From Alphaproteobacteria bacterium (GTDB lineage: Bacteria > Pseudomonadota > Alphaproteobacteria > UBA828), in assembly GCA_963667785.2 (NCBI GenBank), contig CAXXMU010000002.1, positions 64,001 to 128,000 on the forward strand: a DNA stretch of 64,000 nt, in the 5' to 3' direction. Position numbers and translations under genes: made by a program. The notes under the pieces were generated by a model, which was not told the DNA's origin, did not search any database, and was given only the letters and a program-made list of their open reading frames with translations. Positions 2,694 through 27,855 of the stretch are shown here, piece by piece. Every line of letters starts with the position of its first letter. The stretch's first letter is position 1.

Positions 2694-2712
2694 CCAGAGC
2701 CGGATGCGCATC

Positions 2713-7643: not shown

Positions 7644-7687
7644 CCCGCGGCGTCACGGCCGCTGGCACGGAAGGGAGACAACGGCGG

Positions 7688-8008
7688 ATGGGAGGAGTCG
7701 TCTACCACGTGGTCGGGCAGAGGGCCCGTCTCCGCGACGGCGACGTCACGTGCGTGGTCGTCGAGGGAAGGGAGATCGCGCTCTACAGGATCGGCGACGA
7801 GTTCTTCGCGACCGACGACGCCTGCACCCATGCCCACGGCTCGCTCTGCGAGGGATACCTGGAGGGCGAGGAGATCGAGTGTCCGCTTCACGCGGGCCGC
7901 TTCAACGTCCGCACCGGCGAAGCGACTTGCTCGCCGGCCACGGAGGCCCTCGCCACCTACGAGGTGAAACGCGACGGCGAGGACATCCTGATCGGCATTC
8001 CCGCGTGA
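7688..8008 (+). CDS. Rieske-type [2Fe-2S] ferredoxin
   Basis: CTHAHGSLCEG...ECPLHAGRF motif, 106 aa. Confidence 0.92.
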   Translation: MGGVVYHVVGQRARLRDGDVTCVVVEGREIALYRIGDEFFATDDACTHAHGSLCEGYLEGEEIECPLHAGRFNVRTGEATCSPATEALATYEVKRDGEDILIGIPA

Positions 8009-8070
8009 GCGTGCCTGCGGACCGGCCACCCGCCCACTGTCCGCATGGCCTCCTAACATACTGATCTGAT

Positions 8071-8117
8071 TGGTACGCCCGCCTGGACTCGAACCAGGGA
8101 CCCTCTGATTAAAAGTC
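8071..8117 (-). repeat. att site: 47-bp duplicate of tRNA-Lys 3' half
   Basis: TGGTACGCCCGCCTGGACTCGAACCAGGGACCCTCTGATTAAAAGTC identical to 27637-27683; diverges just beyond the anticodon loop. Confidence 0.95.
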
Positions 8118-8955
8118 TTGACATTTTCGTTTTGAATCAAGGGGTTTTCGCAGTTTCGAGCCATTTTTCTCCCACTGAATATCAATGGCTTATCGGCAAA
8201 CTGTAAAACACTTTTCATGGCTGATGGAAAGACGAGAGCGGGCCGGAACGACATGGCGGTAGATACTCTCGTTGGGGGCGCGTTCACGGTCCTCCGCGGT
8301 ATGTCGGATTCCAGCAAGCACTGACCCATAATCGGTCCACTCTACTTTGGTTTGCGCGCCAATGGCGGCGATCCCAGCACGATCGGCCTCAAGGCCAAGG
8401 CACCGGCCTCGAGACCCATCGCGGCGGGCTGGTACGGGAAGTTGCGGATGAATGAAACGGGTGTTTCGGGCGTGCTGACGACTGAGTGGCGTCGCCCCTA
8501 ACGAATGAGGCGCAAAGCACGGTGACTAAGACTAACAAAGGAAACTACAGGCTGGGCGCTCGAGAAGTGGGTGCTTGCGAAACGTGTGCTCATTCCTTGG
8601 TGGGTAAGCGTCTGGCGTAGATCCTTTGCCCGGAAACTGTGGCATAGTGGAGCCTGCCCTGGGGCCACGAAGAGCAGGGGAAACTGGGCGACCGTTTCGA
8701 CGTATCCGGTCGAACCGCGTTCGTCACAGGCGCGAGCCGGGGCCACGACGCAGCGATTTTGCGGCAGCTTGCTAGTTTGGCGTGTCAGTCCCAGAATTTG
8801 AACGGGACCACCCATTGGTATCGGGCATTTGCCAACAAGGCGGAGCCGAAGCGCTTTCTGGAAGCTCACTGGGCGAGAGCCATCCCGAAGCGCTTTGGCG
8901 AAGAAGGCCGACGATTCTCGCCCGCGGCCAAGAACTTCGGACGTGAGGGTCGACA

Positions 8956-10086
8956 ATGGTAGGCCGGTTGCAGCGAGCGATTGAAGCCGATGTTCAGTCC
9001 GGCCTCTATGACGGAGCCGCGACGATCGTTGCAGTCGGCGGCGAGATCGCGTTCAACGAGACGATCGGATACGCCGATCGCGCCAACGAGACGCCGCTCC
9101 GCCATGACAGCGTCTTTCCGGTGTTCTCGATTTCGAAGGCACTGACCGCCGTTGCCTTGCTGCAACGCGTCGAACGCGGGGAGGCCAGACTGGATACACC
9201 GGTCTGCGAGGTGATTCCCGAGTTCGGCGTGAAGGGGAAGGCGCGCGCGACGCTCGGGCAGCTTCTCTGTCACACGGCCGGCGTGGCGCCCGGCTTTCCG
9301 GCCGTCCCCGCAGACAAGCAGGGCGATCTCAAGGCGGTGGTTGCCGCCGTCTGCGCCACGCCCGCGGTTTCGGTGCCGGGAGAGGAGGCGAGCTATTCGC
9401 AGATCATGGCGCACGCCGTGGCGGCGGAGTGTGTCCGGAGACTGGACGGAAACGGGCTTCGCTTCCGCGATATCGTGACACGCGACATTTGCGCGCCGCT
9501 CGGCATGGTGGACACGAGCCTCGGCATGCGTGCGGATCTCGCGTCCCGCGGCATTGTCCCCCGCTGCACCGATCGCAGCCCCGGGCTGTTCGATCCGGAC
9601 GCCCTCGTCGCGGCGGCGCAGGACATCATGGACCCTGCGCTCGACCACGAAATGCCCGCTGCCGGCTTCGTCTCGACGCTGAACGACATCTTTGCATTTA
9701 CTGAGGCGCTCCGGTGCGGGGGACGGCGCGACGACGCGCGCGTGCTCTCCCCTGCCATGGTTGCGTTCGCGACCAGGGTTCATACCGGGACCATGGTCAA
9801 CACCCAGTGGCATTTCGCCCGCGAAATGAAGGGCTGGCCCGCGTTCCCGGCCAATCTCGGACTCGGCTTCTTCATCCGTGGCGAGGGCATGATCCCCACG
9901 TACTTCGGGCATCTGTCGAGCCCGGAAACGTTCGGTGCCTTCGGTGCCGGTTCGACCAACATGTGGGTCGATCCGACGCGGGATATGACCATGATCTGCC
10001 TCACGACCGGCATTCTGGAAGAGACGAACAGCGCCGCTCGCTTTCAGCGACTCTCGGACATCGCAATCGCCGAATTCTACGGCTGA
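8956..10086 (+). CDS. serine hydrolase, beta-lactamase/family VIII esterase fold
   Basis: SxxK (FSISK), LLCHTAG, PGEEASYS, PLGM motifs; no signal peptide. Confidence 0.88.
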   Translation: MVGRLQRAIEADVQSGLYDGAATIVAVGGEIAFNETIGYADRANETPLRHDSVFPVFSISKALTAVALLQRVERGEARLDTPVCEVIPEFGVKGKARATLGQLLCHTAGVAPGFPAVPADKQGDLKAVVAAVCATPAVSVPGEEASYSQIMAHAVAAECVRRLDGNGLRFRDIVTRDICAPLGMVDTSLGMRADLASRGIVPRCTDRSPGLFDPDALVAAAQDIMDPALDHEMPAAGFVSTLNDIFAFTEALRCGGRRDDARVLSPAMVAFATRVHTGTMVNTQWHFAREMKGWPAFPANLGLGFFIRGEGMIPTYFGHLSSPETFGAFGAGSTNMWVDPTRDMTMICLTTGILEETNSAARFQRLSDIAIAEFYG

Positions 10087-10803
10087 CGTGCGCAGACCGA
10101 TGTAAGACGAATGCGGTCGCCGCAGGTGTCGCAGCCAGTCATTTGCTTTGCGAAGATCATCAAGCGGCGCGGCGTTTCGTCGCGCAACGCGCGTTTACTG
10201 CGACACGATCGCCAGAGTACGGCCGAGCGGGAGGCCATTGTCCACGCTCAACAACACGCGAGCGCCGAAGGCGATGTCGGCACCGATCAGGGCAGCTTGC
10301 CGCCCGGACAGGTGAAGTTGATGGAGAGCACCTACCGCGGCGTCGTCTTGCTCGCGACCCTGAAGCGCGACGAAATGTTCCGCGACGGTCGTCACGAAGA
10401 GCACGGTCGAATGCTCGAGGACGCCAGAAAGTCGCAGTCGGAACTGTTCTCCGGCGAGTGAGCGGTCACCGATTGCCGTGCGCTTCGTCGACCGCGGCAG
10501 CAGGATGCTGCAGGACTTGCACGAAGAAGCGGCTCTGAGTATCGACCCAGCGGCGAACATCCGGACCGCGAGAGACCGCCTTGGCGGCATGCCGGGACTG
10601 TCCCACGGATTGTCGGCGTTCTCCTTCCAGCAGCCGTAAGCGGTTTGAAGCTACTTGCGTGCCGACTCGCGATAGCTCCCGGCGGGCCTGCGTTTGCCGA
10701 CGGTTAGCGGAAACCACTCTGACAGGTCTCGTAACCGAAATGCCTGCTGCTACATTCGATGCGTCCAAGCAATGGACGCAACCAACACGGCCTTCGACCA
10801 TGT

Positions 10804-12549
10804 TCATCGCACAGCAATTGAGCGTGCGAACTCGTCCGCCCCCGCGTCCGCCGCACGCCGGAAGGACTGCAACGCGTCGTCCAGCCCGTCTCCAGGGTAT
10901 CGATACTCGTCGGGTACCGAATCGTAGCGTGCCTGGGCTCGTTCAAACGAGGTCTGCCATTGGCTCGTGAATCCCTCCGTCTTCGAAACGCAACCCGAGG
11001 CCGTCTGCTGGATCATCTCCAACTCGCCCCTCAGAAAGCCCAGAAAGTCATGGATCGCGACCTGCTGACGGCTGATCTTCTCGAAGTGATAGCCCATGGC
11101 CGCCAGATAGATCGCCTCGGGAAGCATGTGGGGGTGTTTCTTGGAGACCTTGCCGATGAACTTCGAATAGGCAGGGAGCTGCCTGCGGGAGAGACGACGG
11201 CGAACGATCATGAAGGCTGCATCGATCTCGTTCCTGCTCCTGGGCTTTCGAAGATGCCGGACGGGCTTCAGGTGCCTGAACAGGGTCAGGCAGCGGCTGA
11301 AGTAATTCTCCAGGGTCGGATCGTAGAGTGTGGTTAGCACGCGTTCGTAGCCCTCGATCAAGGTGCCGTAACTCATCTCCGTCCTGAAGTTGAGTGGCAT
11401 GGCACTGGTTCCGAGTGGGGCCTCCAGCAGCCGGTTTTCCGACTTCAGGCGCTCGTACATGTCCGTGCCCTTCAAGGCGGTCAACAAATAGATGGGGGCC
11501 ACAGGAATCCCGGTCTCCTGGACAAATTTTATCTGGGCATCGAACACGCCCTCGTCATCGCTATCCAGACCCAGGATGAACCCGCCCTGGACCTGCATGC
11601 CGTGCTGCTGGATTTTTCGAATGGCGTGGAAGAGGAAGTTCTCCTGGGTTTTGCTGGTGTTTTGCTGCTTCTTGGTCTTGAGCAAGGCCTCGGGGTTGGG
11701 GGTTTCGATGCCGACGAACACGGAATCGAAGCCGGCCTCGATCATGGCATCCATCATCGCGTCCATCAGCGCCAGGTTCGCGCTCGCTTCCGTCATCAGG
11801 GTGAACGGATATCCCTTGGCCTTTTGCCACTCGGCGATCGCCGGCAGCAGGTTCAAGGCATCCCGCTTGTTGCCGATGAAGTTGTCGTCAACCAGAAAAA
11901 CCGGGCCTCGCCAGCCCAGGCGGTAGAGGGAATCAAGCTCCTCCACGACCTGTTCCGGCGACTTGGTGCGGGGCACGCGGCCGTAGAGCTTGATGATGTC
12001 GCAGAATTCGCAGTCGAATGGACATCCCCTGGAGAACTGCACGCTCATCGTGGCGTAGTTCTTCAAGTCGATGAGGTCGAAGCGGGGAACCGGCGTCCGG
12101 GTCACGTCCGGCTTCCGTGTTTCCCGCCAGAATTTCTTGGCCGTGCCGGCTTCCAGGTCCTGCAGGAAATCCGCAAAGATTTCCTCGGCCTCGTCCAGCA
12201 CGAAGTGGTCCACGCCCACGATCTCCTCGTGAAACGTGGTCGGATGAGGTCCCCCTGCAACCACCGGAACGCCTTTTCGGTTGCAACGCTCGATCACCGC
12301 GCGTAGCGACACATGTTGCGTGATCATCGTGGACGTGAACACGTAATCCGCCCACTCAAGGTCGGCGTCCTGCAAGGCGCCCACGTTCATGTCGACCACG
12401 CGGAGCGCATAGCTCGGAGGAAACAACGCGGCGATCGTCAGCAGTCCCAGGGGCGGGTGGGTCGCCTTGACCCCCGTCAGCTCCAGCGCGTGGTCGGCCC
12501 CCCAGTAGGTCGGAGGGTGTTCCGGGTAGACCAGCAGAGCGTTTGGCAC
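10804..12549 (-). CDS. B12-binding radical SAM protein (DUF4070-type; SwfC-like)
   Basis: PPLGL and GGPHPT cobalamin-binding domain; SRGCPFDCEFC CxxxCxxC; VDDNF, GIET, GFILGLD. Confidence 0.92.
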   Translation of the reverse strand: MPNALLVYPEHPPTYWGADHALELTGVKATHPPLGLLTIAALFPPSYALRVVDMNVGALQDADLEWADYVFTSTMITQHVSLRAVIERCNRKGVPVVAGGPHPTTFHEEIVGVDHFVLDEAEEIFADFLQDLEAGTAKKFWRETRKPDVTRTPVPRFDLIDLKNYATMSVQFSRGCPFDCEFCDIIKLYGRVPRTKSPEQVVEELDSLYRLGWRGPVFLVDDNFIGNKRDALNLLPAIAEWQKAKGYPFTLMTEASANLALMDAMMDAMIEAGFDSVFVGIETPNPEALLKTKKQQNTSKTQENFLFHAIRKIQQHGMQVQGGFILGLDSDDEGVFDAQIKFVQETGIPVAPIYLLTALKGTDMYERLKSENRLLEAPLGTSAMPLNFRTEMSYGTLIEGYERVLTTLYDPTLENYFSRCLTLFRHLKPVRHLRKPRSRNEIDAAFMIVRRRLSRRQLPAYSKFIGKVSKKHPHMLPEAIYLAAMGYHFEKISRQQVAIHDFLGFLRGELEMIQQTASGCVSKTEGFTSQWQTSFERAQARYDSVPDEYRYPGDGLDDALQSFRRAADAGADEFARSIAVR

Positions 12550-12869
12550 GACCGGGTTCTCCTCTCCTCCACCCTCACGTCCGGCGACCAGCTATCGCCG
12601 AGGGCATGTCTTCAGGCGACGTTGGCGAGACCATGTCCAGACTTTACGAATTGGGCCTCAGTGGAAGCCGTTCTTAGCGCTGGCAGGGCTCTCGGTACCA
12701 ACCGCCCGAGTATCGCGATTGAGCAGTCAATCCGCGAGCGAGAGGCGCCCCCTAACGCCTCTCGGAGAGCGCAAAGTAGCAGGAAAGTGTCCTTAGTGCC
12801 CTGCCGAGTACGCACAGGTATACTGAGTCCGCTCGACACACCCATCCCGTGCAACGTTCGGAACAGGCG

Positions 12870-14054
12870 ATGGCACAGGAAACGACAGAGCCCCAAGGTA
12901 GATCCGGCCGTCCCAAGTGGATGGGCTACGCGCAGCTGATCCTGATATTGGCCGCCGTCGGAGTGGCCCTCTACTTCGCACAGGCGCCGAGCCGCGTGGA
13001 GCGCGACCCGATTTCCGACATGGCGCTCGACCAGGCCAAGCCCACCGTCGCCGTGATTCAGTCGGTGCCGACCGAGCAGGCGCTGAGGGTCGACCTGACA
13101 GGAGGGGTCACGCTGCACGGAAACGTCAAGGTCACCTCCGAAGTCGGCGGCCGCGTGGTCTGGGTCTCGCCCAGTTTCCGGAACGGCGGGTCGATCGCCG
13201 CGAACGAGGCCATCATCAAGGTCGATCCGGCGGAGTACGAGCTCGAGCTCGAAGTTGCCGCCGCGAAGGTCGCAAAGGCGGATGCCCGGGTCCAGATCGA
13301 GAAGGCCAAGGCGGAGGAAAGCCTGGCCACTTTCGCACGCGAGAACCCCGGAGCCGACATTCCCGAGCGGGTGCACCGCGCGGCGTACATCGCGAAGGCG
13401 GAAGCCGTGCTCATGGAGGCGCAGGCCGAGATGAAGCTGGCGCAGCTCCGGCTCGACCGAACCGAGATATCCCTTCCGTTCGACGTCCGGGTCGCAGCGG
13501 CGGACATCGATGTCGGCCAGTTTGTCGGCCCCGCCGAGCTGGTCGGCCGTGCCTCGTCATTGGGGTCCGTCTACCGAACCGACGCGCTCCAGGTCAGAGC
13601 GCCCATCGAACAGGAGAGCTTGGCCTATCTCGCGCCGGCCATCGGTCGCTCCGCCACGGTTCGGACTGCGGCAGGAATATACGACGCCGTGGTGGAGCGC
13701 ACGTCCGCAATCATCGGCCCCAAGTCCCGTCTGGCGAGGGTCTTCCTGAAGTTCGCTGCGGCTCACCCGTCGGATACGCTGCCGATGCCCGGCTCGTTCG
13801 TGGAGGTCTCGATCGCAGGGCCTGTGCACGACAACGTGCTCGTGCTGCCGGAATCGGCCATGCAGGATCAGGGCAGCGTCTGGATTGTCGAGGGCGGCGC
13901 GCTGAAGTCCGTCACGCCGCGCACGCTGGGATACGCCGACGGCGGCGTGGTGGTGGAGGCGTTCGAGGTGGGCGAGGGCATCGTCGTCGGCTCCTTGCCG
14001 GGAGCGCGAGAGGGATTGGCCGTCGAGGTCAGCGCCGCGCAGGCGTCGGAATAG
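12870..14054 (+). CDS. RND efflux membrane fusion protein
   Basis: N-terminal TM, EVGGRV lipoyl half, coiled hairpin, ISLPFD, PGSFVEV, LPESA. Confidence 0.88.
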   Translation: MAQETTEPQGRSGRPKWMGYAQLILILAAVGVALYFAQAPSRVERDPISDMALDQAKPTVAVIQSVPTEQALRVDLTGGVTLHGNVKVTSEVGGRVVWVSPSFRNGGSIAANEAIIKVDPAEYELELEVAAAKVAKADARVQIEKAKAEESLATFARENPGADIPERVHRAAYIAKAEAVLMEAQAEMKLAQLRLDRTEISLPFDVRVAAADIDVGQFVGPAELVGRASSLGSVYRTDALQVRAPIEQESLAYLAPAIGRSATVRTAAGIYDAVVERTSAIIGPKSRLARVFLKFAAAHPSDTLPMPGSFVEVSIAGPVHDNVLVLPESAMQDQGSVWIVEGGALKSVTPRTLGYADGGVVVEAFEVGEGIVVGSLPGAREGLAVEVSAAQASE

Positions 14055-14066
14055 CGGAGTCGGGCC

Positions 14067-17000
14067 ATGAGCATGACCGACGCCGGCAGCACCAACGCCG
14101 GGCCCGCGGCGCAGCCAGGCCCGACCGGCCTCACGTCGGGGCTGATCGCCTACTTCGCCGGCAACCGCGTTGCCGCCAACCTGCTGATGATTCTGCTGAT
14201 CGTCGGCGGCGTGCTTTCGGGGCTTCAGCTCATCGTCCAGTACTACCCGGATATCGAGGCGCGGCGGGCCGCCGTTTCGGTGCTGTATCCGGGCGCCGCG
14301 CCCCAGGAAGTCGAGGAGGACATCAACCGCCGCATCGAGGAAGCCGTCGTCGGGCTGCCGGGCGTCGAGCGCGTGGTGTCGACCGCAAGCCAGAGCCTCG
14401 GCAAGGTCACGGTAGAGATGGCGACCTTCGCGGATACCGACGCCGTCTTCAACGACATTCAGAGCGCCATCGACGGCATCGAGAACTTCCCGCCGGTCAG
14501 GGCGGAGCAGCCGGACGTCAGGCTGCTCAAGATCTCCCACGAGGTCATGACGCTGGCGGTCGTCTCGTCCAGTCTTTCCGAGGACGGACTGCGCCTCGCG
14601 GCGGAAGACCTGCGCGACAGGGTGCTGGCGCTGCCGTCGGTCTCTCAGGTGGGGCTGAAAGGCACCCGGGACCGTGAGATCACGATCGAGCTGAGCGAGG
14701 AGGAGCTGCGCCGCCACGGCCTCTCCATCGGCGAAGTGTCCAGAAAGGTCAGGCGGGCGTCCCTCAACCTCACCATGGGCGAGATACGGACGGGCACCGG
14801 CAGCGTGATCCTGCAGACCGTCGCCAAGAGGAGCGTCGGCCAGGATTTCCAGGACATTCCGCTGCTCACGCATAACGATGGCACGATCATGACGCTCGGC
14901 GACGTCGCCAGGATTCGCGACGGGTTCGTGGACGAGGAGGTGGTCACCGAGGTCAACGGCCATCCGGCGGTGCTGGTTCGCATCGATGCGACCGAGGAGC
15001 AGTCCGTCGTCGAGATGGCCGAGGAGATCAGGAATCTGCTCGCGGTCTATAGCCCGCCCGAAGGCGTGAGTGTCAGTATCTGGAACGACAACGCCAGCCC
15101 CATATTCGACCGGCTGCTGGAGATCGTGAAGAACGGGGCGATCGGCACGATCCTGGTGTTCATCAGCCTCGTTCTCGTCTTCGAGCTCCGCATCGCGTTG
15201 TGGATGACCGTCGGCATCCCCTTGTCGTTCGTGGGCTCGTTGCTCTTCTTCGACGCTGCAGACCTAACGCTCAATCTCGGCACGATTTTCGGCTTCTTCC
15301 TCCTGGTGGGCATCGTCGTGGACGATTCCGTCGTGGTCGGCGAAAGCATCGCGGCGGAACGCGAGAAGGGGAAGAATGCGCTCGACGCGGCGGTCTCGGG
15401 CGCGCGGGCCATGGTGGGTCCGCTCACCATCGGCGCCGTCACGACGATTCTGGCCTTCCTGCCATTCCTCTTCATCACGTCGCCCGCGTTCCAGATCGTG
15501 AACGTGTTCCCCTATGTCGCGATCCTCGTCTTGCTCGTCTCGCTGGTTGCGGCGTTCTTCATCCTCCCGGCGCATCTCTCGCACGGGAGGCGCTGGAGCC
15601 TCTCACCGCTGAGCGACGTGCAGACCCAGGTCGGAGGATGGCTGGACGAGGTGCGCGACAGGGTCGTGGCGCCTGCAGCCTCGTGGGCCGTGCGCAACGT
15701 CTGGCTGTCGATCGTCGGCGCACTCCTCGTTCTGGTCGCTGCCGTTCTGCTCCTCGGCTCCGATGCCGTTCGGATCGTCCTCTTCGACGAGAACCTGAGC
15801 AGCACCGACAACGTGCAGGCGGACATCTATCTGCCGGTGGGTGCGCCGTTCGAGGAGACGCTGGCTGCAGCCGACCGCTTCGTCGAGGCAGCGCACAGCC
15901 TCAACGACCGGCTGGAGGGCACCCCCGTCGACGCGGTGAGCATGATCGTCGGCAACATCGAGACAGGGCGGAAAGACGGGGAGAAGCTGAACAGCAGCCA
16001 TCTCGCCTCCGTGCGGCTGCATCTCAGCGACCAGGCCGATCGCAGCGCGAGCCCGCCCGAAGTCGAGCGAGCATGGCGCGAGGCCATCGGTTCCGTGACG
16101 AACCTGGAAAAGGCCGAATTCCGCTCCGGGCGCTTTGCCGCCAGGCCGAGCGTTTCCTACTCGCTCAAGCACGACCATATGGAGACGCTGAGAAGCGCGG
16201 CCGCGGAGCTGAGGGAGGGGATGGCGACCGTGCCGGGCATCTACGGCATCCATGATGACCTGGCGCCGGGCAAGCGCCACTTCGAGATTGAGCTGACCCC
16301 GGCAGGCAAGGCCGCAGGGCTGACGCCGGCACTGATCGGGACGCAGCTGCGCTCCAGCTTCCACGGCGTGGACGTCCAGCGCATCCAGAGGGGCCGCGAG
16401 GAAATCAACGTGGTGGTCAGGTATCCGGCCGAGCGGCGGCGCAGCCTGAGCGAGCTGGCCAGCGAACGGATCCAACGGCCGGGCGGCGGCGAAATCCCGC
16501 TCTCGCTGGTGGCGACGATCACCGAGAAGCGCGAGCCGGCGACGCTGACGCGGATCGACGGCAAGCGGGCGGCGCGCGTCAACGGGCGGGCGGACACTGC
16601 GGTGATCACGCCGATTCAGGCGCGGCAGGAGGTTCGCAACCAGGTCATTCCCGACCTTCTGGAGGCGTATCCCGGCCTTGCCATCGAGGTCGAAGCCGGC
16701 GCGCGGGACGAGAGCGACATGCTCGAGACGCTGGCGGTTCTCGTCCCCATCGTCCTGATCGCGATCTACGCCCTCATCGCGGCCTTCCTGCGCAGCTACT
16801 GGAAGCCGGTGATCGCGGTCGTGGGCATTCCCATCGCGTTCGCAGGCGCGATCGTGAGCCACTGGATACTCGGCTGGGATCTGACCACCATGTCGATCTT
16901 CGGCATGATCGCCGTCGGCGGCGTGGTCGTGAACGACGCCCTCGTGCTGCTGGACCGATACAACACGATCCGGCGGGACAATGCGACGATCCCCGCCATC

Positions 17001-17222: not shown

Positions 17223-17474
17223 TCGCGTCCCGTCGTGCGATTTGCGGCGGGCAACATGGGCCGCAGAGAGTCGTTTCCCGAATCGCCCGTCGCGATCACC
17301 CTGGATGACTCCAATGTCAACCACTTGATGTCACATGACAAATCAAACACCATGCACAGTCGTCGACAACCCACCAAGTGACCTGAAGGCTATGCTATCG
17401 AGGCGCAATGGGCATGCACGCGTGTCCGGCCCGTTCGCGGCCGCTACCGCCGTGCCCGGGCTCCGAGCGACAGC

Positions 17475-20400: not shown

Positions 20401-23400
20401 TTCTTCAGCCCTGCCCGGTCCCGAGAACGCCGGTGCGCCTGCAGACGGTGCTACATCCGGTCGCCAATTCCCCGTCCGAATTCACCTTCGTCATCTCCAC
20501 CCGGCCCTACGGCGGGGAAAGCAGGAGCGAGCCGCACTGTCGGGGCAAGGTGCGACTGTTGAGCGACCCGCCGGCGCCAGACACTCCGGGCAGGCTCGAG
20601 GACGTCGACCGCTCCGGCTACGCGCCAGTCGAGAACGGCTCAGGAGACGAACTCTACGAATGCTTCGAGGCAGTGCTGGGCGATACGTACCGCTACGGTC
20701 CCCACTGCAGAAACATCCGGCAGATCCAGCGCCACGTGTCGACCCGGTCCTATCTGGTCGATCTCGAAGTCGACGAAAGCCTGTGGGCCGACGGCCTAGA
20801 GGAGGGGTACGTCTGCTACCCCCCGCTGATCGACGGCGCATTTCAGGCGTTTCTCTACAGCCTGTTGGGTACGTCCGATCACCTGTGCATTCCACGGCGA
20901 ATCGAGCAAATGACGTTTCTCGGCGCGGCGGCGGGACCGCGGCTGACCTGTCTCCTGAGGGATCCTCCGGATCGCGCCCTGGATATCGACGACAAGGGCC
21001 AGTTCAGCCCTTTGGAGGGCGAGCGGCTGTCGGGCAGCATCAGCTTCTACGACCAGTCCAATGGAGCCCTCGTTGCCTACGTCCAGAAATACATCCATTT
21101 CGACTCGAACCTGAAAAGGGGGGACCTGCCCCACAGCAAGCACCGGATCGTCTGGCAGCCCAAGTTCCTGCCGAACGCCCAGGTGTTCGCCGACCGGCTG
21201 CCCGCCGGCGACATCGATCCCGTGGCGTTGATCGCCGCTCTTGAACGGCGCGTTGACGGCGAGGGCCGCGCGTGTCGCATCCTGGAGTTCGCCGGGTGCA
21301 GGGAGCCCGAGCAGACCATGCTCGAGCAGTGCGTCGGGCACCTGTCGAGTGCCGGAGGGCACGGCGAGTTCTGGCTCGTCAGCGACGATGAAGAAACCGC
21401 CGGGAATAACTACGAGGCGTTTCACGCGGCCGACGCCGCTCTGCGATTCGAATGCATCGACCCGGCCGAGCGCCAGGCGATCGGTCTCGACGAGGGTCTG
21501 CTGCGTCCGGGTGCGGTGGAGGTGCTCCTTCTGCATCGCGATACGGCCGCATTCTCCCCCGCCGACTGGGAGTTCTGGAGACGCCTGCTGGTGGCCGGAG
21601 GCCTGGCGCTGGTCTCTCACTCCGAAGGCGACGTACTCGAACCGGGCGCCGGATGGGCCGTCGTTCGCGCCGCGCCGCGCAGCACCCTGCTTCAGGCCCC
21701 GCAGTCGTGGCCGGACTCCCTGAACGCGACGGCTGTTCCGACGCCCCGTTGGGTGGTGGGTGAAGCGCACAGCCCGGCGCAGGACTGGGCCTCCCTGCTC
21801 GACGATCCGGAGGTGTACCCGATCGACTTTCAGCCCCTCGTCTGCGGTGAGGACCACGATATCGAGGAGTGGCCACGGGCGGCGGACGTGCAGGCTGTCG
21901 ACTTCTTCTGTGGTCGTGATCCGCAGGACCCCACCGGCGAGGGGGTGGTGTCGGCTCTCGTCGCCCTCGTCAGGGCACTGGTGTCGTACCGCACCGAGCA
22001 TGCGCATTCCCGGTGCCGCGTCACCGTTGTGACCCAGGGGGCCGCCTTCGATGTTCACGACCCGCGCGGGTGCGGTTTGTGGGGCGCGGTTCGCAGCATG
22101 GCGATCGAGGTGGGCGAGGACGCCGGTATCGACTTCCGTCAGGTGGATCTCGGTGCCGACGACGACCTGAAGACCCTGGCCTCGCTCGCTCGCTGCGATC
22201 TGCGCGATCGGGAGATCGCGGTGCGGGAGGGCCGCCTGTGGGTGCCCCGCATAGAGAGCATTCGTGACCATGCTCCCTGCGTCCCCGCCGGCGACGAAAC
22301 CACCTACCGCCTGTGCCTGGACAACCCGGGGCAGATCGGCGGGTTGCAGATGAAGACGTACGAACCCGCGGCGCTCGGGCCGGGCATGGTGGAGATCGAC
22401 GTGAAGGCAGCGGCGCTCAACTTCCGCGATGTCATGGTGACCTTGGGACTGCTGCCCTCGGCAGCCTACGAACGCTCCGCGCTGGGGCTGGAGGTCGGCA
22501 TGGAAGCAAGTGGAGTCGTGCGCCGGGTCGGCGAGGGTGTGGACCATTGCCTGGCCGGCGACGAGGTGGTTTTCACCAAGGGCGGGTGTATCGCCAATCG
22601 GGCAGTCGTCGACGCCCCCCTTGTGTTTTCCAAGCCCGCCCGCCTCGACATGGAGCAAGCCGCGTCTTCGCTGTCGGTCTACCTCACCGCGTACTATGCC
22701 CTTGTTCACCTGGCTCGGCTCTCCGAAGGTCAGAGTGTCCTCATTCACTCGGCCATGGGCGGCGTGGGGCAGGCCGCCATCGCGCTTGCCAGGCGCGCAG
22801 GGGCCACGATCTACGCAACGGCGGGAAGCGATGCCAAGCGCGAGCGGCTTCTCGAGCTCGGTGCGAGTGCGGCGTTCGATTCGCACAGCGAGAATTGGTA
22901 CGACGAGCTGATGGAAGCGACACGCGGCGAGGGTGTCGACGTGGTGCTGAATTCCCTCGCCGGCCGTCATCTCGCGCTGTGCCTGGAGGCTCTGCGTCCG
23001 GGCGGTTGGCATTGCGAGATTGGGAAGGTCGACATCTACTCCGACAACCCGCTAGGCCTCTACGTCTTCCGCAAGAACCTGCGCTTCGCGGCGGTCGACG
23101 TGGATCGCCTGATGGTCGATGACCCCTGGCTCCTGCGCCGACTCTCAGAGACCTGTCTCGACCTGCTCGAACGGGGCGAACTGCCGCCGTTGCCGATCAC
23201 GGTCTACGACTATGAGGACTACGCCAAGGCCCTGCGCTTGATGACCAGCGGCAAGCATCAGGGGAAGCTGGTGCTCAGGGCCCCGCCGGCCGGCGTTCAT
23301 CCGCGGTTCCCGATCGTCGATCGGCGTCCACTGCTCGACCCCGATGCGACCTACCTCGTGAGCGGCGGCCTCGGCGGATTCGGCCTGTCCCTGCTGCCCT

Positions 23401-24530
23401 ATCTCGTATCAATCGGAGCCCGCCATCTCACGTTGATGGATCGGGACCCCGAGCGCCGCCGCAACGCCGACTGGGTGAGCGAATCGACCGCGCTGCAATA
23501 CATGGACTGGGAGTGCGAGATCGACATCGTCGTTGGCGATGTCGCGATTGCGGCGGACGTTGAGCGCTGCGTCGCCTGCCTGCGCCGGCCGCTCAAGGGC
23601 GTCTTTCACTTCGCCGGTGTGCTCGATGACCGTCTGCTCGACACCATGTCGCGGGACTCCGTGGAGACGGTATTCGCTCCCAAGGCTACCGGCGCGCTGA
23701 ATCTTCACCGGGCGACCGCCGGGCATCCGCTCGACCTCTTCGTCATGGCCTCGTCCACTGCCTCAACCTTCGGCAATCCTGGACAGATCAACTACAGCGC
23801 CGCCAACGCTTACCTCGATGGCCTCGCAGTGTGGCGCCGCAGGCAGGGTTTGCCGGCGCTGTCCTACAACATTGCGGCGGTCGCCGAGGTCGGTATGGCC
23901 TCGCGAAACCACCATGTGCTGCGCATGCTGAGGATGGTCGGCATGCCCCCGGTGAGCGTTCACTTCGCAATCGCCAACCTCGACTACACGCTGCGCAGAC
24001 TGCCCGACAGCGACCACCTGGTGACCGCGCTGTTCAAGCGGGTTCCGTTGACCGTCGACTCTGCGGACTACATGCGCATCGGTCGCCTGATGAGCAACAA
24101 CGATGCGTTCCAGGGTCATTCCGACGACCGACTCACGCTCGAAACCGTGATGACGCAGATTGCCGAGAAGGTCGCCGAGCTATGCGGCCACGATGAAGGC
24201 GACATGGACGAGCCGTTGGCGAGCTTCGGATTCAATTCGATCTCCGTTGCCGAGCTCGTGGCGTATCTTCAGAATCAGTTCAACTTCCAGGTCAGCGCTC
24301 TGGAACTGATGACCACCGCCACCTGCCAGTCCTTGGCGCATGCGATCGTCCACAGAGCGGAACAGCCCGAGGAGGTGGAAGGCGAGACCGATGCGGTGGA
24401 GAGCGCGGACGCGCCTCTCTCCGGGCGGCTCCGCGGACGCCGAAGGCCGTCGGAATTCGCAAGCGTCCTGGAAGATCACTTTCCGCCAGCGCCCGGTGCG
24501 AGCCGAAACGAAATGACGACGGAGTCTTGA
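17475..24530 (+). CDS. mono-modular type I PKS/FAS, KS-AT-DH-(pseudo-MT)-ER-KR-ACP (SwfA-like)
   Basis: KS CTACSAG, EAHATGT, KSNVGH; AT GQGTQW, GHSSG, AFHS; DH HVVHHAAIMP; ER LIHSAMGGVG; KR GGLGGFG, YSAAN; ACP GFNSIS. Confidence 0.95.
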   Translation: MTSQRRESDVAIVGYGHRMPGGIRSDSDFWRLLTEREIVQEPVRDRYGRGHLPIGEFSGPGRLASPWEGLIRDSDELLFDRTLFGMSHNEMMKTEPQVRMLLNCAWETIEHAGWDFHALRNSPTGVFVGAQLPAVSNWRPLHGVNEYSVTSISVAMLANRISYHFNLMGSSIAYCTACSAGLSALHAAMNALLCGDCDQALVGSVTYLGSARMGSSFNLMGVISPEGKCHSFDAQANGYMRSEGAFVFALKPLVAAERDGDPIHAVIEASAVNAAGAADDAVGLPPGRNITAPTRHAQVELMRTAAARAGRTAGEFDYLEAHATGTVVGDRIEGNAIAEAFSGFDREVPLRVSSVKSNVGHMEAAAFHCAMLKVVLMMQRRTFAPTSKNHLVPNPEIDFDRCPMRVQTEVEPFPEHPVVVGINSFGFGGANGHCVVREYRPARPRIWSVALAPEAGYVVPLSARNAKSLARTAGQLREMLDRRPMDLYTLAGNLSRRRTHFSTRAALAVRDLQELEEGLDAVAEERAPVATVEEGEPRLTMVFAGQGTQWAGCGRALYGADPVFRRVIDAIEAHWREHSDVSLREACFSAPQSELDECELAQPVIFMLQCALVELFKTWGVYPDCVVGHSSGEVAAAYACGALSLGDATRLVFHRATLQQRTAGSGRMLAIGLDRCGVEELLDTLDVPFRLDANRPVQVEIACENAPANTVICGSETALQPVIEELDRRNLQNRLVPGNIAFHSRAMDAIREDVAAALSFLDERAFDLDVPFVSSVTGCLTERLDSAYWWSNIRQPVRFAAAMDIVKRDHRPHAVLELAPHCALQPVIAQCLADGVSTPTSIATFMRDGDTRNGFLESLGALFRAGVTLDFASRYPRPEPLPHLLPGHPRDEEKKADTTADDEFHNQAAEYSHGPLVGHRIPCDHLMFEARFSDRAFPWAADHVVHHAAIMPATGYIEMVLEAFGGVPVHFDVIEFLQPCPVPRTPVRLQTVLHPVANSPSEFTFVISTRPYGGESRSEPHCRGKVRLLSDPPAPDTPGRLEDVDRSGYAPVENGSGDELYECFEAVLGDTYRYGPHCRNIRQIQRHVSTRSYLVDLEVDESLWADGLEEGYVCYPPLIDGAFQAFLYSLLGTSDHLCIPRRIEQMTFLGAAAGPRLTCLLRDPPDRALDIDDKGQFSPLEGERLSGSISFYDQSNGALVAYVQKYIHFDSNLKRGDLPHSKHRIVWQPKFLPNAQVFADRLPAGDIDPVALIAALERRVDGEGRACRILEFAGCREPEQTMLEQCVGHLSSAGGHGEFWLVSDDEETAGNNYEAFHAADAALRFECIDPAERQAIGLDEGLLRPGAVEVLLLHRDTAAFSPADWEFWRRLLVAGGLALVSHSEGDVLEPGAGWAVVRAAPRSTLLQAPQSWPDSLNATAVPTPRWVVGEAHSPAQDWASLLDDPEVYPIDFQPLVCGEDHDIEEWPRAADVQAVDFFCGRDPQDPTGEGVVSALVALVRALVSYRTEHAHSRCRVTVVTQGAAFDVHDPRGCGLWGAVRSMAIEVGEDAGIDFRQVDLGADDDLKTLASLARCDLRDREIAVREGRLWVPRIESIRDHAPCVPAGDETTYRLCLDNPGQIGGLQMKTYEPAALGPGMVEIDVKAAALNFRDVMVTLGLLPSAAYERSALGLEVGMEASGVVRRVGEGVDHCLAGDEVVFTKGGCIANRAVVDAPLVFSKPARLDMEQAASSLSVYLTAYYALVHLARLSEGQSVLIHSAMGGVGQAAIALARRAGATIYATAGSDAKRERLLELGASAAFDSHSENWYDELMEATRGEGVDVVLNSLAGRHLALCLEALRPGGWHCEIGKVDIYSDNPLGLYVFRKNLRFAAVDVDRLMVDDPWLLRRLSETCLDLLERGELPPLPITVYDYEDYAKALRLMTSGKHQGKLVLRAPPAGVHPRFPIVDRRPLLDPDATYLVSGGLGGFGLSLLPYLVSIGARHLTLMDRDPERRRNADWVSESTALQYMDWECEIDIVVGDVAIAADVERCVACLRRPLKGVFHFAGVLDDRLLDTMSRDSVETVFAPKATGALNLHRATAGHPLDLFVMASSTASTFGNPGQINYSAANAYLDGLAVWRRRQGLPALSYNIAAVAEVGMASRNHHVLRMLRMVGMPPVSVHFAIANLDYTLRRLPDSDHLVTALFKRVPLTVDSADYMRIGRLMSNNDAFQGHSDDRLTLETVMTQIAEKVAELCGHDEGDMDEPLASFGFNSISVAELVAYLQNQFNFQVSALELMTTATCQSLAHAIVHRAEQPEEVEGETDAVESADAPLSGRLRGRRRPSEFASVLEDHFPPAPGASRNEMTTES

Positions 24531-24790
24531 CCATTCGCCAGCCCGGCCCGGATTCCATACCGACCAGGGCACCGGCACATTACAAAAAACTACATGCCTC
24601 CATGCGGCGCGTTGTCGGGAAGGTGGCACTCATGGATCGGACACGGCCTCCTCCGCAGCGTCGCACCCCTGGTTCTGCAGACCCGAGCATTCCCGGGGTG
24701 CTCGGTTTCCGATCCGCGGCCCAGCAGTCGCAGCCCGCGGCGACCGGGTGGGCTCAGGTTCGGCGCCCCCGGTAGCGAGCGAGACACGAG

Positions 24791-27286
24791 ATGGCTGAAA
24801 CACTCCCCGCTTCCCGCGTGGTGCCCTCCCTTGCTGGTCGCATGCCGATGCAGTGCCAGCGCGACCTCGACGGTTTGCGCAGTTTCATTCATTCCACCAT
24901 CGGGGAGGAATCGCCGGCCGAACCGGTATCTGCAAACGACTTCCGGGAAGTGCTGCTGACCGGCGCCACCGGGTTCGTGGGCCGCTTTCTGTTGCGCGAT
25001 CTCCTGCTGCAAGACGATAGCCTCGTCGTGCATTGCCTGGTCCGCGCGGACGGCGTCGAGCATGGCTTCGCGCGGATACGCGCCGCCCTGGAGCACGCCG
25101 AGATCTGGGACGACGCATTCGGGCCGCGCATCCGGGTCGTGGCCGGGGATATCCGCGCGCCTCGATTGGGTCTGAGCGATGCGAAATTCGACGATCTGTG
25201 CCGACGCATCGACGCGGTCTACCACCTCGCCGCCGACCTCTCCCTCGTGTCGTCCTACGCCTCGATACGCGACGTGAACGCGACCAGTCTTCGCAATGTG
25301 CTCGCGTTGTGCCTGCGAACGCGTTTCAAGCACGTCTTCTACGCTTCCACGATGGCCGTTTTCCCCGAGTACTTCTGCAATTTCTCGAACGAATTCAGTC
25401 GCAGTCGTATCGGACATCACATGCAGCCCGATCTGGCAACTATGAAGAGGCTGTTGCCGCTCGGTTTCCTTGGATACCCGTGGAGCAAGCTCGTTTCCGA
25501 GCAGGTCCTGCTCTTCGCGAACGCGGCCGGACTGCCGGTGGCGATTTTTCGCCTGCCGCAGACGGGGATGTCCAGCACAGGTTTCACGAACGCGAGCGCC
25601 GTCGCGCTCTCCATCTACCTCGCGGCGATACAGATCGAAATGGCTCCCGCCGGCTTCTCCATACAGAGCTGTGCCGAGCCGGTGGATACGCTCACCGAGA
25701 TATGCGCCGCAATCTCGGCGAATCCCGAGCGGCGGTTCACGATCTACCATTGCTGCGATCCGCAACCTCCGCATGACGATTTCGGGCCGGCCGATTTCGG
25801 ACTCTACTTGCGCGAAGTTCCATACGAGACGTTCAAGCGTGCCTGCGAGGCGCTTGGAGAGCGCTCTCCGCTGCACGGGCTGTGGACCCTGCTCGATTTC
25901 TTCGCATCGTACTGGTTCGCGGACGGCGAGGCCCGCGGCGTCGCTCCGGTCGACGATCGCGCCATTCGCGAGGACTGTCCCTTTCCTGTCCGGTGGCCGG
26001 CATTGCTCCTCCGGCATTCGCGCTCCTACGACTGGATACGGCGACAGGGCGATGGGTGGCCCTATCCGGTGCCGAAAGCCCGCCTGGACCTCGACCGCCT
26101 GATGGCGCAGGCCGAGGGTTACGCCGAACGCGTCGGCGTTCCCTTCGACCACACGTTTCCCGCGTGGATGCGTACGGGATTCCAGCGCCTTGTGGAGGTA
26201 CTCAGCGCACCACAGGCCGGATTGCTGGAGGAGAGACGCCCGCATCTCGTCTACGAACTGAACCGCCAGCTTCGCAACAATGCGGCGCTCGCCCGCGAGT
26301 GGCAGCAGCACCCCGAGATCGAGCGCGAGGAGATCGTGCGTCCGGTGTTCATCGTGGGGATCAATCGAACCGGCACCACGTTTCTGCACCGCATGATGGC
26401 GCGCGACGAAAGGTTCTGGACGCTGCGACGCTACGAGCTGTCGGAGCCGGTCCTGTCAAGCGGGGCGTACGATACCGTGGCGCGCACCGCCGGCGACCCG
26501 CGCCGACTTCACGTGAAGGAGGTGCTGGACTCCATTCGGGTCGTGGATCAGTTCGCCGAAATGCACCGCATCGACATCGACGAGCCCGAGGAGGATTTCC
26601 CGATCCTCAGGCAGTCCTTCGCATCCTGGGTCAACGCCGTCGCGTACTACGTGCCGGACTACCGCAGCTGGCTTGCCGCCACCGGTTCGGACAATGCCTA
26701 CGCCTATCACCGTCGCGTCATGCGGCACTTCACCTGGCAGCGCCGGCAGCGCGAGCGCGACGCCCGGAAGGCTTGGTTGTTCAAGATGCCCTTCCATCTC
26801 ATGGAGCTGGAGGCACTGCTCGCGAATTACCCGGATGCGGTTTTCATCCAGACCCATCGCGAGCCCACGCAGTTCATGGGATCGTGGAACAGCCTTGTGG
26901 ACCGGATACGCTCCGTCTCCATCGAGCCGCGCCCGCGGCACGACACCGGTGCCGAGCAGCTGGACCTGATGAGCGGCATGCTCAACGAGGCGATGCGGTT
27001 CCGGGCGTCGTGCCCCGAGCTCGAGGCGCGCTGGGTCGATGTGAACTACCGCGACCTGGTCGAGAACCCGATGGGGGTGGTCAGCGAAATTTACGAACGG
27101 TTCGATTGGCGGCTCGAGCCGGCGGCTACGGCCGAAATGGAGAGTTGGCTCGAACGGCAGGCGGAACAGCGTCGGCAAGAGCCGCCGCATCGATACAACC
27201 TGGAGGACTTCGGCCTCAACACAGAACGGGTCTCAGCCGCATTTGCGCCGTATCGGGAGTTCGTTGGCTCGCGGAAGATTGCGTAG
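24791..27286 (+). CDS. thioester reductase-sulfotransferase fusion (SwfB-like)
   Basis: N-terminal LLTGATGFVG and GYPWSK (extended SDR/R domain); C-terminal FIVGINRTGTTFLH PAPS-binding loop, KMP, THREP. Confidence 0.9.
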   Translation: MAETLPASRVVPSLAGRMPMQCQRDLDGLRSFIHSTIGEESPAEPVSANDFREVLLTGATGFVGRFLLRDLLLQDDSLVVHCLVRADGVEHGFARIRAALEHAEIWDDAFGPRIRVVAGDIRAPRLGLSDAKFDDLCRRIDAVYHLAADLSLVSSYASIRDVNATSLRNVLALCLRTRFKHVFYASTMAVFPEYFCNFSNEFSRSRIGHHMQPDLATMKRLLPLGFLGYPWSKLVSEQVLLFANAAGLPVAIFRLPQTGMSSTGFTNASAVALSIYLAAIQIEMAPAGFSIQSCAEPVDTLTEICAAISANPERRFTIYHCCDPQPPHDDFGPADFGLYLREVPYETFKRACEALGERSPLHGLWTLLDFFASYWFADGEARGVAPVDDRAIREDCPFPVRWPALLLRHSRSYDWIRRQGDGWPYPVPKARLDLDRLMAQAEGYAERVGVPFDHTFPAWMRTGFQRLVEVLSAPQAGLLEERRPHLVYELNRQLRNNAALAREWQQHPEIEREEIVRPVFIVGINRTGTTFLHRMMARDERFWTLRRYELSEPVLSSGAYDTVARTAGDPRRLHVKEVLDSIRVVDQFAEMHRIDIDEPEEDFPILRQSFASWVNAVAYYVPDYRSWLAATGSDNAYAYHRRVMRHFTWQRRQRERDARKAWLFKMPFHLMELEALLANYPDAVFIQTHREPTQFMGSWNSLVDRIRSVSIEPRPRHDTGAEQLDLMSGMLNEAMRFRASCPELEARWVDVNYRDLVENPMGVVSEIYERFDWRLEPAATAEMESWLERQAEQRRQEPPHRYNLEDFGLNTERVSAAFAPYREFVGSRKIA

Positions 27287-27355
27287 CCCCATGGCGTATC
27301 GATAGGAGTGGGCGCAGCCGCCGCCCACCGTTCCAGTTCTGGGGGCGATACGGCC

Positions 27356-27525
27356 ATGAGCGTCTGCCCCGGGGTAACACCCAGGATTGTCGGGGTGAAG
27401 TTCCAGGGGATCAGGTCGTCGATGCATGACATGGGGTGCATGTCGACCGACGATCCGGCGCAGGGTGTCGGCGAGATACGCCTGCGGATTGACGTCGCTG
27501 AGTTTGCAGGTGCCGATGAGGCTGG
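27356..27525 (-). pseudogene. IS66 transposase (TnpC) C-terminal remnant with degenerate right end
   Basis: SLIGTCKLSDVNPQAYLADTLRRI then, in another frame, HPMSCIDDLIPWNF; ends GGCAGACGCTCAT resembling the IS66 terminus GGACGCTTAC. Confidence 0.8.
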
Positions 27526-27636
27526 CGCTCCGCGCCGAAGGGCGGATCAGGAACAAAAGTGCAAAACCGTTCCCGAAAAAGTGTAAAACAAGATGCAGAA
27601 GTGTTGACCTATTGTTCTCTAAGTTATTGAGTTGAA

Positions 27637-27712
27637 TGGTACGCCCGCCTGGACTCGAACCAGGGACCCTCTGATTAAAAGTCAGATGCTCTACCGCCTG
27701 AGCTACGGGCGC
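27637..27712 (-). tRNA. tRNA-Lys (TTT)
   Basis: Reverse complement GCGCCCGTAGCTCAGGCGGTAGAGCATCTGACTTTTAATCAGAGGGTCCCTGGTTCGAGTCCAGGCGGGCGTACCA, 76 nt. Confidence 0.96.
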
Positions 27713-27725
27713 GCCCTGTCGCGAG

Positions 27726-27754
27726 ACGATAGGGAGGCGCCGGCGGAGGGTCAA
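27726..27754 (-). promoter_or_regulatory. sigma70 promoter of tRNA-Lys
   Basis: TTGACC-17 bp-TATCGT on the minus strand. Confidence 0.65.
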
Positions 27755-27855
27755 GCGGCCGTCCCCGCCGTATTCCCGTTTCATACCCGCCGCGTTCGCG
27801 CCGCGTCCCTGCCGCCGTTTCGGCCGCCGGGCGGGGGCTGTAGAGTGTCACCGCC

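Follow-up and report, generated by a model that had tools for sequence, protein, structure and literature searches.

An integrase-less tRNA-Lys island with identical att repeats carries a swf-type biosynthetic cluster in a sponge-associated alphaproteobacterial genome

Introduction

Among islands integrated into tRNA genes, an attachment site in the anticodon loop is a sublocation linked to particular integrase subfamilies. Here we describe an island of this kind, which occupies positions 8071-27712 of a 64,000-nucleotide stretch of alphaproteobacterial DNA (the window; GenBank contig CAXXMU010000002.1, positions 64,001 to 128,000) and carries a gene cluster of the swf type. A second group of relevance are the cis-mobilizable elements (CIMEs), defined in the passages of PMC6323972 devoted to them as elements that have kept their att sites, have lost the genes for integration and transfer, and are mobilised by accretion.

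The swf cluster ('sponge symbiont widespread FAS', FAS standing for fatty acid synthase) was introduced by Della Sala et al. 2013. In the sections of that paper used here, swfA encodes a protein of 2349-2361 amino acids (aa) with the six domains KS-AT-DH-ER-KR-ACP, swfB a reductase-sulfotransferase fusion (R+ST) of 832-839 aa and swfC a B12 radical SAM enzyme of 585 aa (PMC3908369). The same sections propose an alkyl sulfate, possibly methylated, as the product and leave its function open (PMC3908369). In the relevant part of PMC9426513, the cluster is described as independent of bacterial taxonomy. Few biosynthetic clusters in sponge microbiomes are as widespread, and our literature search found neither a vehicle for its spread nor a later paper on its product.

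A preliminary description, made from the letters of the window, had recognised a swf-type cluster in a tRNA-Lys island with perfect att repeats and without an integrase. Our analysis suggests that window 8071-27712 is probably the immobilised remnant of a tRNA-Lys element of the type found in two congeners (G014 and G003), carrying a horizontally acquired swf block. Genomes, contigs, loci and sequencing runs are cited by numbers preceded by G, C, L and X, respectively. The window genome, G000, is a bin of 14 contigs and 4,094,588 bases, 98.1% complete with 6.6% estimated contamination, in which the window is C2:64001-128000.

Results

Two identical att cores delimit a 19.5-kb segment at tRNA-Lys(UUU)

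The boundaries of the island are formed by two features.

8071-8117, minus strand: distal att core, identical to the last 47 nt (CCA back to the anticodon loop) of the tRNA-Lys(UUU) gene
27637-27712, minus strand: intact tRNA-Lys(UUU) gene (ARAGORN), the 3′ 47 nt of which (27637-27683) are the proximal att core

ARAGORN called two tRNA genes in the window, one of them tRNA-Lys(ttt) at 27637-27712 on the minus strand. A repeat search of the window returned the direct repeat 8053-8117/27619-27683, the final 47 nt of which are identical (47/47), while 12 of the 18 nt upstream of this identity also match. The core covers the encoded CCA end, the T arm, the anticodon loop and 2 nt of the 5′ anticodon-stem strand. 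With up to three mismatches allowed, a search of the 4,094,588-base assembly with the 47-mer returned the two cores and nothing else, and the reversed 47-mer used as a control gave no match; the probability of a chance identity of 47 nt within 64 kb is negligible. A direct repeat of the 3′ part of a tRNA and an intact tRNA at one end, two marks of a tRNA-integrated island, are therefore present. The preliminary description had derived identical 47-bp cores, running from CCA through the anticodon loop, from tyrosine-recombinase integration into the 3′ half of tRNA-Lys, and the repeat search, the tRNA call and the restriction of the core to two copies genome-wide bear this out.

Both compositional profiles, sliding GC and tetranucleotide, which had been proposed as a check, are atypical between the repeats. 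The 19.5 kb between the att cores have a GC content of 0.584-0.682 in all 1-kb bins of 8001-28000, compared with 0.673-0.744 in the bins to the left of the island, 0.663-0.770 in those to the right and approximately 0.72 overall outside. Tetranucleotide distances of 5-kb segments over 7501-27500 range from the 86.8th to the 96.6th percentile of 812 genome segments, and those of segments wholly outside the island, in the part of the scan that lies within the window, from the 1.2nd to the 81.9th. One 5-kb segment upstream of the 64-kb stretch reaches the 95th percentile.

A ten-codon trace of a tyrosine integrase

Between the last cargo gene and the tRNA, two gene fragments adjoin each other.

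27380-27523, minus strand: 3′ fragment of an IS66-family transposase gene, truncated and frameshifted (Pfam IS66_C covers 27437-27523)
27532-27564, plus strand: remnant of a tyrosine integrase gene, consisting of its last 10 codons (9/10 identical to the C-terminus of the G014 integrase) and the former stop codon, now CAA

Pfam searches of all called open reading frames (ORFs) and a six-frame search with PF00589 revealed no intact gene for an integrase, a relaxase or replication in the island. The latter gave 18 matches in the whole genome and none between the repeats, the nearest being C2:21447-24451, outside the window. When the 25 stop-to-stop ORFs over 8118-8955, 10087-10803 and 27287-27636 were run against Pfam at E values up to 1, the sole significant match was the IS66 C-terminal element at 27437-27523 (minus strand), which reads on, frameshifted, to approximately 27380. 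With the queries used, no other IS66-like sequence was found in the assembly, nor any further IS66 copy or end that could define a composite transposon. Searching the island by tBLASTn under lenient settings with the integrases of seven relatives returned noise only (best E value 0.024, inside swfB); of the eight integrases used as queries, only that of G014 gave a match, of 10 terminal residues.

In G014, the ORF that enters the proximal arm at tRNA-Lys encodes a 362-aa tyrosine integrase (L145:1570-2658, PF00589 E value 1.3e-20), 75% identical to the 340-aa integrase of G003 (L032:11454-12476). A three-locus alignment places window 27532-27561 on the last ten codons of the G014 integrase gene, with 9/10 residues identical, and homology to the gene ends at approximately 27531, where the IS66 fragment starts. 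Since the remnant aligns at the homologous position of the G014 gene, the alignment shows that an integrase was once present in the island and that all but its last 10 codons have since been deleted. Thus, the earlier statement that the island has no integrase holds for an intact gene, in the six-frame PF00589 and tBLASTn searches, and has to be amended for the 3′ remnant. Likewise, the tBLASTn search of the unassigned stretches that had been suggested yielded no gene and only these last 10 codons, and the claim that no working mobility gene is visible agrees with the Pfam, PF00589 and tBLASTn searches. Of the integrase gene expected at one end of a tRNA-integrated island, the window retains only this terminal piece. 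Relaxase, coupling protein or type IV secretion system together with an integrase, the hallmarks of an integrative and conjugative or integrative and mobilizable element, are lacking in the island.

Elsewhere in the assembly, no homologue of the G014 integrase with more than 29% identity was found. G000 does hold three copies of a tyrosine integrase of approximately 412 aa (C2:23879-25114, C5:346257-347492 and C6:940430-941665), which share 86-87% identity with an integrase near tRNA-Lys in G012 and 57-60% with that of the swf-carrying element of G018 described below.

Both island arms have homologues at tRNA-Lys in congeners

Inside the cores, the island carries an arm at either end.

8118-8260, plus strand: distal arm, homologous to arms beside partial tRNA-Lys copies in G014, G020 and G018, with one 13-nt motif (8197-8209)
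27524-27636, plus strand: proximal arm, homologous to arms at tRNA-Lys in G014 and G018, with two 13-nt motifs (27555-27567 and 27577-27589)

BLASTN aligned window 8070-8241 with the DNA flanking the partial copy in G018 (83%, E value 1.5e-43) and window 27562-27757 with the DNA flanking the G018 tRNA (85%). The distal arm alone, searched against 61 genomes, was found in four including the window genome: three times in G014 (87, 85 and 80%), in G020 (81%) and in G018 (81-83%). It directly follows a partial core in two of the three G014 copies and in the single G020 copy. A search with only the proximal arm recovered G014 (82% over 102 nt) and missed G018, even though the longer alignment including the tRNA had found the latter. 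Three copies of the 13-nt motif are present in the window, compared with 0.08 expected, and all share one orientation and lie within the arms (8197, 27555 and 27577); as the pattern was derived from two of the three sites, only the third is independent.

The G014 copies of the distal arm are L146:10086-10275, L147:4889-4997 and L148:578-732, and the G020 copy is L149:8551-8703. Three distal arms, two of them with a partial core, stand against a single tRNA-Lys(UUU)-hisZ locus seen in G014, the assembly of which is fragmented; the arms may form a tandem array. The cargo after the distal arm in G014 (C129) and G020 consists of an oligopeptide-type ABC transporter and a luciferase-like monooxygenase.

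The tRNA-Lys gene is an integration site in at least nine congeners

Forty relatives, 20 of them from the same genus, were searched for the site; 14 loci were examined for cores, tRNAs and ORFs, and 67 ORFs were run against Pfam. The tRNA-Lys gene adjoining hisZ is conserved in many of the 20 congeneric genomes, and separate 41-50-nt copies of its 3′ half are present in at least nine of them (G003, G004, G005, G007, G008, G014, G017, G018 and G020). An empty site was found in G012, where tRNA-Lys lies approximately 100 nt from a gene for a 274-aa ion channel and no second core occurs in the 12 kb examined. G010 has the same ion-channel neighbour, with an insertion sequence (IS) element in between. 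The empty attB that the preliminary description had asked for, with a ferredoxin gene directly next to tRNA-Lys, was thus recovered in part: the tRNA-Lys site of G012 is unoccupied, its flank is the ion-channel gene, and ferredoxin next to tRNA-Lys was seen in no genome searched. Atypical composition and an unoccupied site in relatives, further marks of a tRNA-integrated island, are both found here, with a distal flank in G012 that differs from that of the window genome.

The occupants of the site are diverse. A P4-type integrase (Arm-DNA-bind_3 + Phage_integrase) adjoins the partial copy in G004 and G008 and likewise in G007 and G017. In G004 and G008 it opens an island of approximately 10 kb with genes for a helix-turn-helix protein (HTH_36), large terminase, capsid, prohead protease and portal and nothing else phage-like, a layout that we take to resemble capsid-forming phage satellites. 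Only some of these phage-like genes were matched in the approximately 10-kb island of G007 and in G017, where the contig ends within the island. The four P4-type islands are L030:6650-16978 (G004), L034:5208-14727 (G008), L028:3879-14391 (G007) and L039:8333 to the contig end (G017). G005 has two integrases at the site, with a P4-type integrase beside the partial copy. The G003 element measures 25.8 kb between perfect 50-nt repeats and contains replication genes, IS elements and the 340-aa integrase, the gene of which ends 49 nt from the tRNA. Since P4-type islands and the G003-type element occupy tRNA-Lys in congeners, this gene is, judged from these loci, a hot spot for at least two integrase types.

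The tRNA-Lys island of G018 (L035:4637-17025) spans 12.3 kb between arms homologous to those of the window and likewise lacks an integrase. Its cargo comprises DUF1513, di-haem oxidoreductase, imelysin, DUF2325, ZnuABC and a Fur-like gene, and no homologues of these cargo genes were found in the window genome. These comparisons bear on the idea that the region is ancestral and vertically inherited and that the repeat is a local partial tRNA duplication without integration. The identity of the arms to those of G018 (83-85%) is near that of core genes (83-91%), so that the arms at least could be old. Nevertheless, we regard such a history as extremely improbable: the composition is atypical, congeners have an empty site and alternative occupants, an integrase-gene remnant sits in the arm, the SwfB tree (below) conflicts with taxonomy, and G018 holds unrelated cargo between homologous arms.

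To the left of the island, a 41-kb stretch (G000 C2:30713-72070, i.e. window 1-8070 and 33 kb upstream) is composed of segments 81-90% identical to DNA scattered in the relatives. The Rieske oxygenase and ferredoxin genes next to the distal core have counterparts with 85-90% identity in G003, G004, G006, G008 and G012, where these are remote from tRNA-Lys. A second tandem island was considered for this stretch and rejected, as the window genome has no third copy of the core and the stretch is a mosaic of genus-like segments with mostly host-like composition. The lineage-specific arrangement holds a tRNA-Met gene (window 2618-2693), the Rieske pair and genes for a hydantoinase and an MttB-family methyltransferase, which are all found scattered about the genomes of relatives. 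It also contains two dispersed repeats of approximately 300 and 150 nt, located at G000 C2 ~36.98 kb and ~51.06 kb (L041:16976-17282 and L042:11059-11231), of which dozens of copies at 70-93% identity occur in each of five congeners searched and which look like MITE- or REP-type elements.

The cargo is a swf cluster shared with a mobile element of G018

Six genes lie between the arms.

8956-10086, plus strand: serine hydrolase of the PF00144 (beta-lactamase/esterase) family (Pfam, NCBIfam)
10804-12549, minus strand: swfC-like B12-binding radical SAM enzyme, 581 aa (B12-binding + Radical_SAM + DUF4070)
12849-14054, plus strand: resistance-nodulation-division (RND) efflux periplasmic adaptor (HlyD_3; TIGR01730)
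14067-17222, plus strand: RND efflux permease, 1051 aa (ACR_tran)
17475-24530, plus strand: swfA-like single-module type I polyketide synthase/FAS, 2351 aa (KS-AT-DH-ER-KR-ACP)
24791-27286, plus strand: swfB-like thioester reductase-sulfotransferase fusion, 831 aa (NAD_binding_4 + Sulfotransfer_3; TIGR01746 domain match)

The assignment to the swf type, already made in the preliminary description, is correct by architecture. The gene set, the domain orders and the lengths of SwfA (2351 aa), SwfB (831 aa) and SwfC (581 aa), with all expected domains, correspond to those given in the cited sections of PMC3908369. No protein of the island scored above the cut-off of an NCBIfam equivalog, and the hydrolase stays far under every NCBIfam beta-lactamase cut-off, with an esterase/lipase-like top match. 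Judged from its domains, and as argued in the swf paper, the cluster would make a reduced, possibly methylated, long-chain alkyl sulfate; we further propose that the RND pump would export it.

SwfB homologues are encoded in 13 of the 20 congeners, away from tRNA-Lys and with 60-63% identity where full length. The sole match in G003 (C1:1095284-1096081) covers residues 565-829 with an in-frame TAG, and the genus-type swfB may be decayed in that genome. G018 has one genus-type SwfB and a second copy with 95% identity to SwfB of the window. The block around the second copy matches window 12858-27375 at 92.9% over 14.5 kb of nucleotide sequence. The swfC gene also matches, at 86%, and is co-directional with the rest of the block in G018 and inverted in the window. 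The G018 block is part of an element at approximately C1:525-569 kb, with low GC up to ~569 kb, where it is flanked at one end by a P4-type integrase and a helicase and at the other by a TrwC relaxase and a T4 coupling protein. Because no VirB4-type gene turned up within the 70 kb inspected, the element looks mobilizable rather than self-transmissible. Homology between the window and G018 ends approximately 90 nt after swfB, where the IS66-like tail of the window starts.

A scan of species-representative genomes retrieved 78 SwfB loci in metagenome-assembled genomes (MAGs) of many phyla. The nearest after G018 are those of four Paracoccaceae/Boseongicola MAGs (82-84% identity), three of which (L057, L058 and L063) have the order pump-swfA-swfB as in the window and a locus GC of 0.61-0.66. 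A SwfB tree was calculated from 73 rows by a maximum-likelihood quick search (LG+G4, midpoint root for drawing only), excluding rows with fewer than ~780 aligned residues or internal stops. In this tree, the window sequence pairs with the copy in the G018 element (SH-aLRT 98), and this pair is joined (100) by three rows from sponge-associated Paracoccaceae as its sister group; the clade (99) that holds the genus's own copies stands apart. The SwfB tree, the GC and tetranucleotide profiles and the copy in the mobile element of G018 agree, and horizontal acquisition of the swf block, as claimed at the outset, is well supported by these comparisons. The donor direction is inferred from composition only.

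Public reads and a close strain

Of 23 sequencing runs listed for the window, two hold most of the sampled words and bear a coded organism label, and most others are sponge, marine or coral-reef metagenomes with small shares; the evidence given here consists of assembled contigs or unitigs from four of the 23. Short-read unitigs of run X20 cover 8088-8674 and 27282-27666 with zero differences, and both end within the core, which is what a genuine 47-nt repeat would produce. Their depth is 6.3-8.0 at the island-edge pieces and 5.7 at the right flank. Run X1, from another study, has an 8.3-kb contig over 19352-27666 with 60 differences, and its left-end contig contains an extra A in the distal core and misses 8143-8384 and 8661-8738. 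These single X1 contigs suggest that the left att region may be decaying in a close strain. A contig of run X22 that joins 8112 to 27678 was considered as an empty site and rejected, as both ends lie in repeated tRNA sequence and the shorter side has 32 letters; most simply, the joint is the tRNA-Lys of another organism.

The same data speak to the suspicion that a segment of another organism was spliced in via the conserved tRNA-Lys during metagenome assembly or binning. The estimated contamination of the bin, the match of the island GC with that of the Paracoccaceae loci and the break of public unitigs in both cores, neither of which they bridge, would fit such a chimera. It would, however, require two independent mis-joins via the same 47 nt. 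Moreover, both arms are homologous to tRNA-Lys arms of congeners including G018, a single-contig chromosome of 4.15 Mb, the X20 depth is similar at the island edges and the right flank, and the independent sample X1 shows the same right junction into the core. A chimera is hence highly improbable, and assembly artefact and vertical history, even taken jointly, are very unlikely.

Discussion

The island at tRNA-Lys can be explained by the following events. An element whose attP contained 47 nt identical to the 3′ half of the tRNA recombined with the tRNA-Lys gene. This integration regenerated an intact tRNA and left the partial copy 19.5 kb away, with both arms of the element surviving to date. 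In G014 and G003, the arm family is accompanied by a tyrosine integrase of 340-362 aa, the gene of which terminates within the tRNA-proximal arm. A rearrangement or deletion associated with IS66 may subsequently have removed the integrase, and the outcome would be a cargo-only island unable to excise by itself.

A number of observations weigh against this interpretation. The first concern the left flank. The Rieske oxygenase and ferredoxin genes (6471-8012) do not lie beside tRNA-Lys in any relative searched, and the ion-channel gene found at the flank of the site in five congeners corresponds to C2:29891-30712 in the window genome, 41 kb further left. Since the flank gene lies that far off and there is no third core, the empty site of the window lineage is not directly seen; the empty site found is that of G012, with a different distal flank. 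Furthermore, the X20 unitigs span neither core, so that the linkage across the cores is provided by the assembly alone, a bin with the contamination given above. The similarity to the G003 arms is at the level of the motif only, with BLASTN alignments stopping ~10 nt beyond the core. The cores of the window are still identical at 47/47 positions, compared with three mismatches in the G018 remnant of the same arm family, which would fit either an event of recent date or att sites that remain usable. The order of IS66 arrival, integrase loss and swf capture is our reconstruction.

Further reservations concern the cargo. Nucleotide identity to the G018 element falls along the block from swfB (95.8%) and swfA (93.6%) to adaptor-pump (90.4%) and swfC (86.5%), the same comparison with G018's own swf locus giving 71%, 76% and 85%. 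The window swfC is equally distant from the G018 element copy (86.5%) and from a third, unlinked copy in G018 (C1:2682284-2684005). Because identity declines from swfB to swfC, the swf block is itself a recombinant mosaic and not the result of a single clean transfer. In addition, seven syntenic core segments of the window genome and G018 are 83-91% identical, and the swf block (93%) is only modestly above them.

The preliminary description had left two alternatives, a stabilised cargo-only island and one mobilised in trans. The evidence favours the former because the integrase has been deleted, no cognate integrase is present in the assembly and a close strain has lost part of the left arm. 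A mobile hitchhiker, moved by the integrase of a related element acting in trans or by accretion followed by joint excision (cis mobilisation), nevertheless deserves some weight, unlikely as we consider it. The cores are intact, and both arms retain the 13-nt motif. The genus contains elements with this arm family and an integrase (G014 and G003), and some element occupies the site in at least nine of the 20 congeners. The three distal arms of G014 against one tRNA-Lys(UUU) locus in the searches made are what a tandem array would give, and CIMEs are defined in this way and known to be mobilised in this way, according to the part of PMC6323972 cited above. On the other hand, no G014-integrase homologue above 29% identity exists in a 98%-complete assembly, and in the near-identical X1 strain the distal core is interrupted by an insertion and the distal motif is lost through a 242-nt deletion, both of which speak against selection on the att region. 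Moreover, the G014 array is putative, as its assembly is fragmented. The reading of the island as an immobilised remnant of a G014/G003-type element is thus the one we adopt.

A bolder extension, which we put forward as a speculation with little probability of being right, is that the integrase-less cargo islands at tRNA-Lys form a guild, defined by the arms they share. These would be kept as docking and exchange modules and moved in cis by G014/G003-type integrase elements via tandem accretion. The cargo would be swf in the window, genes for metal uptake in G018 and genes for a peptide transporter and a monooxygenase in G014 and G020. If true, the guild would amount to an active CIME network through which swf and other biosynthetic clusters are distributed between different families of sponge symbionts.

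Taken simply as a mobile element, the window island is an ordinary degenerate island, and its value lies in the documented mobile context for swf. The same swf block is found in two mobile contexts within one genus, i.e. a stranded tRNA-Lys island and an element with integrase, relaxase and coupling protein, and its closest further relatives are in Paracoccaceae. Boundaries, att sites and a candidate integrase are now concrete for studying how swf moves. The transferred unit also includes a dedicated RND pump, which points to a possible exported product.

Comparison with known systems

Compared with the published swf cluster, as far as the cited sections of PMC3908369 describe it, the window has the same three genes, domain orders and lengths; homologues are spread over MAGs from many phyla, and the window sequence is present in runs from sponge metagenomes. 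It differs in the RND adaptor-pump pair between swfC and swfA, in a divergent swfC and in the location of the cluster inside the boundaries of a mobile element. The element of G018 shares the swfC-adaptor-pump-swfA-swfB block at 86-96% nucleotide identity and the right boundary ~90 nt past swfB. Unlike the window island, it encodes an integrase of the P4 type, a TrwC relaxase and a T4 coupling protein and lies away from tRNA-Lys.

With islands at the anticodon loop of tRNA genes, the window island has in common the identity from the anticodon loop to CCA, the regenerated tRNA, the atypical GC and arm-type repeats in both arms; it differs in that 10 integrase codons are all that is kept. In its intact relatives in G014 and G003, the integrase has no Arm-DNA-bind_3 Pfam match, is encoded at the tRNA-proximal end and ends inside the arm. 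In the P4-type satellite-like islands at the same tRNA, unlike the G014/G003 type, the integrase lies beside the partial copy.

The island fits the structural definition of a CIME. Both attL and attR are retained, with identical cores and a repeated motif in both arms. Genes for integration, excision or transfer were found neither by Pfam and six-frame PF00589 searches nor by tBLASTn with eight integrases. Derivation by deletion from an integrative element is indicated by the integrase remnant at the G014-homologous position and the adjoining truncated IS66. Like the CIME CIMEL3catR3 of Streptococcus thermophilus, the island has attL and attR and has lost the genes for integration and transfer, and integrase-bearing relatives use the same site in congeners. 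In contrast to that element, the host of this putative CIME is a sponge-associated alphaproteobacterial MAG, the site is tRNA-Lys, and an integrase trace together with an IS66 fragment marks how the island was disabled.

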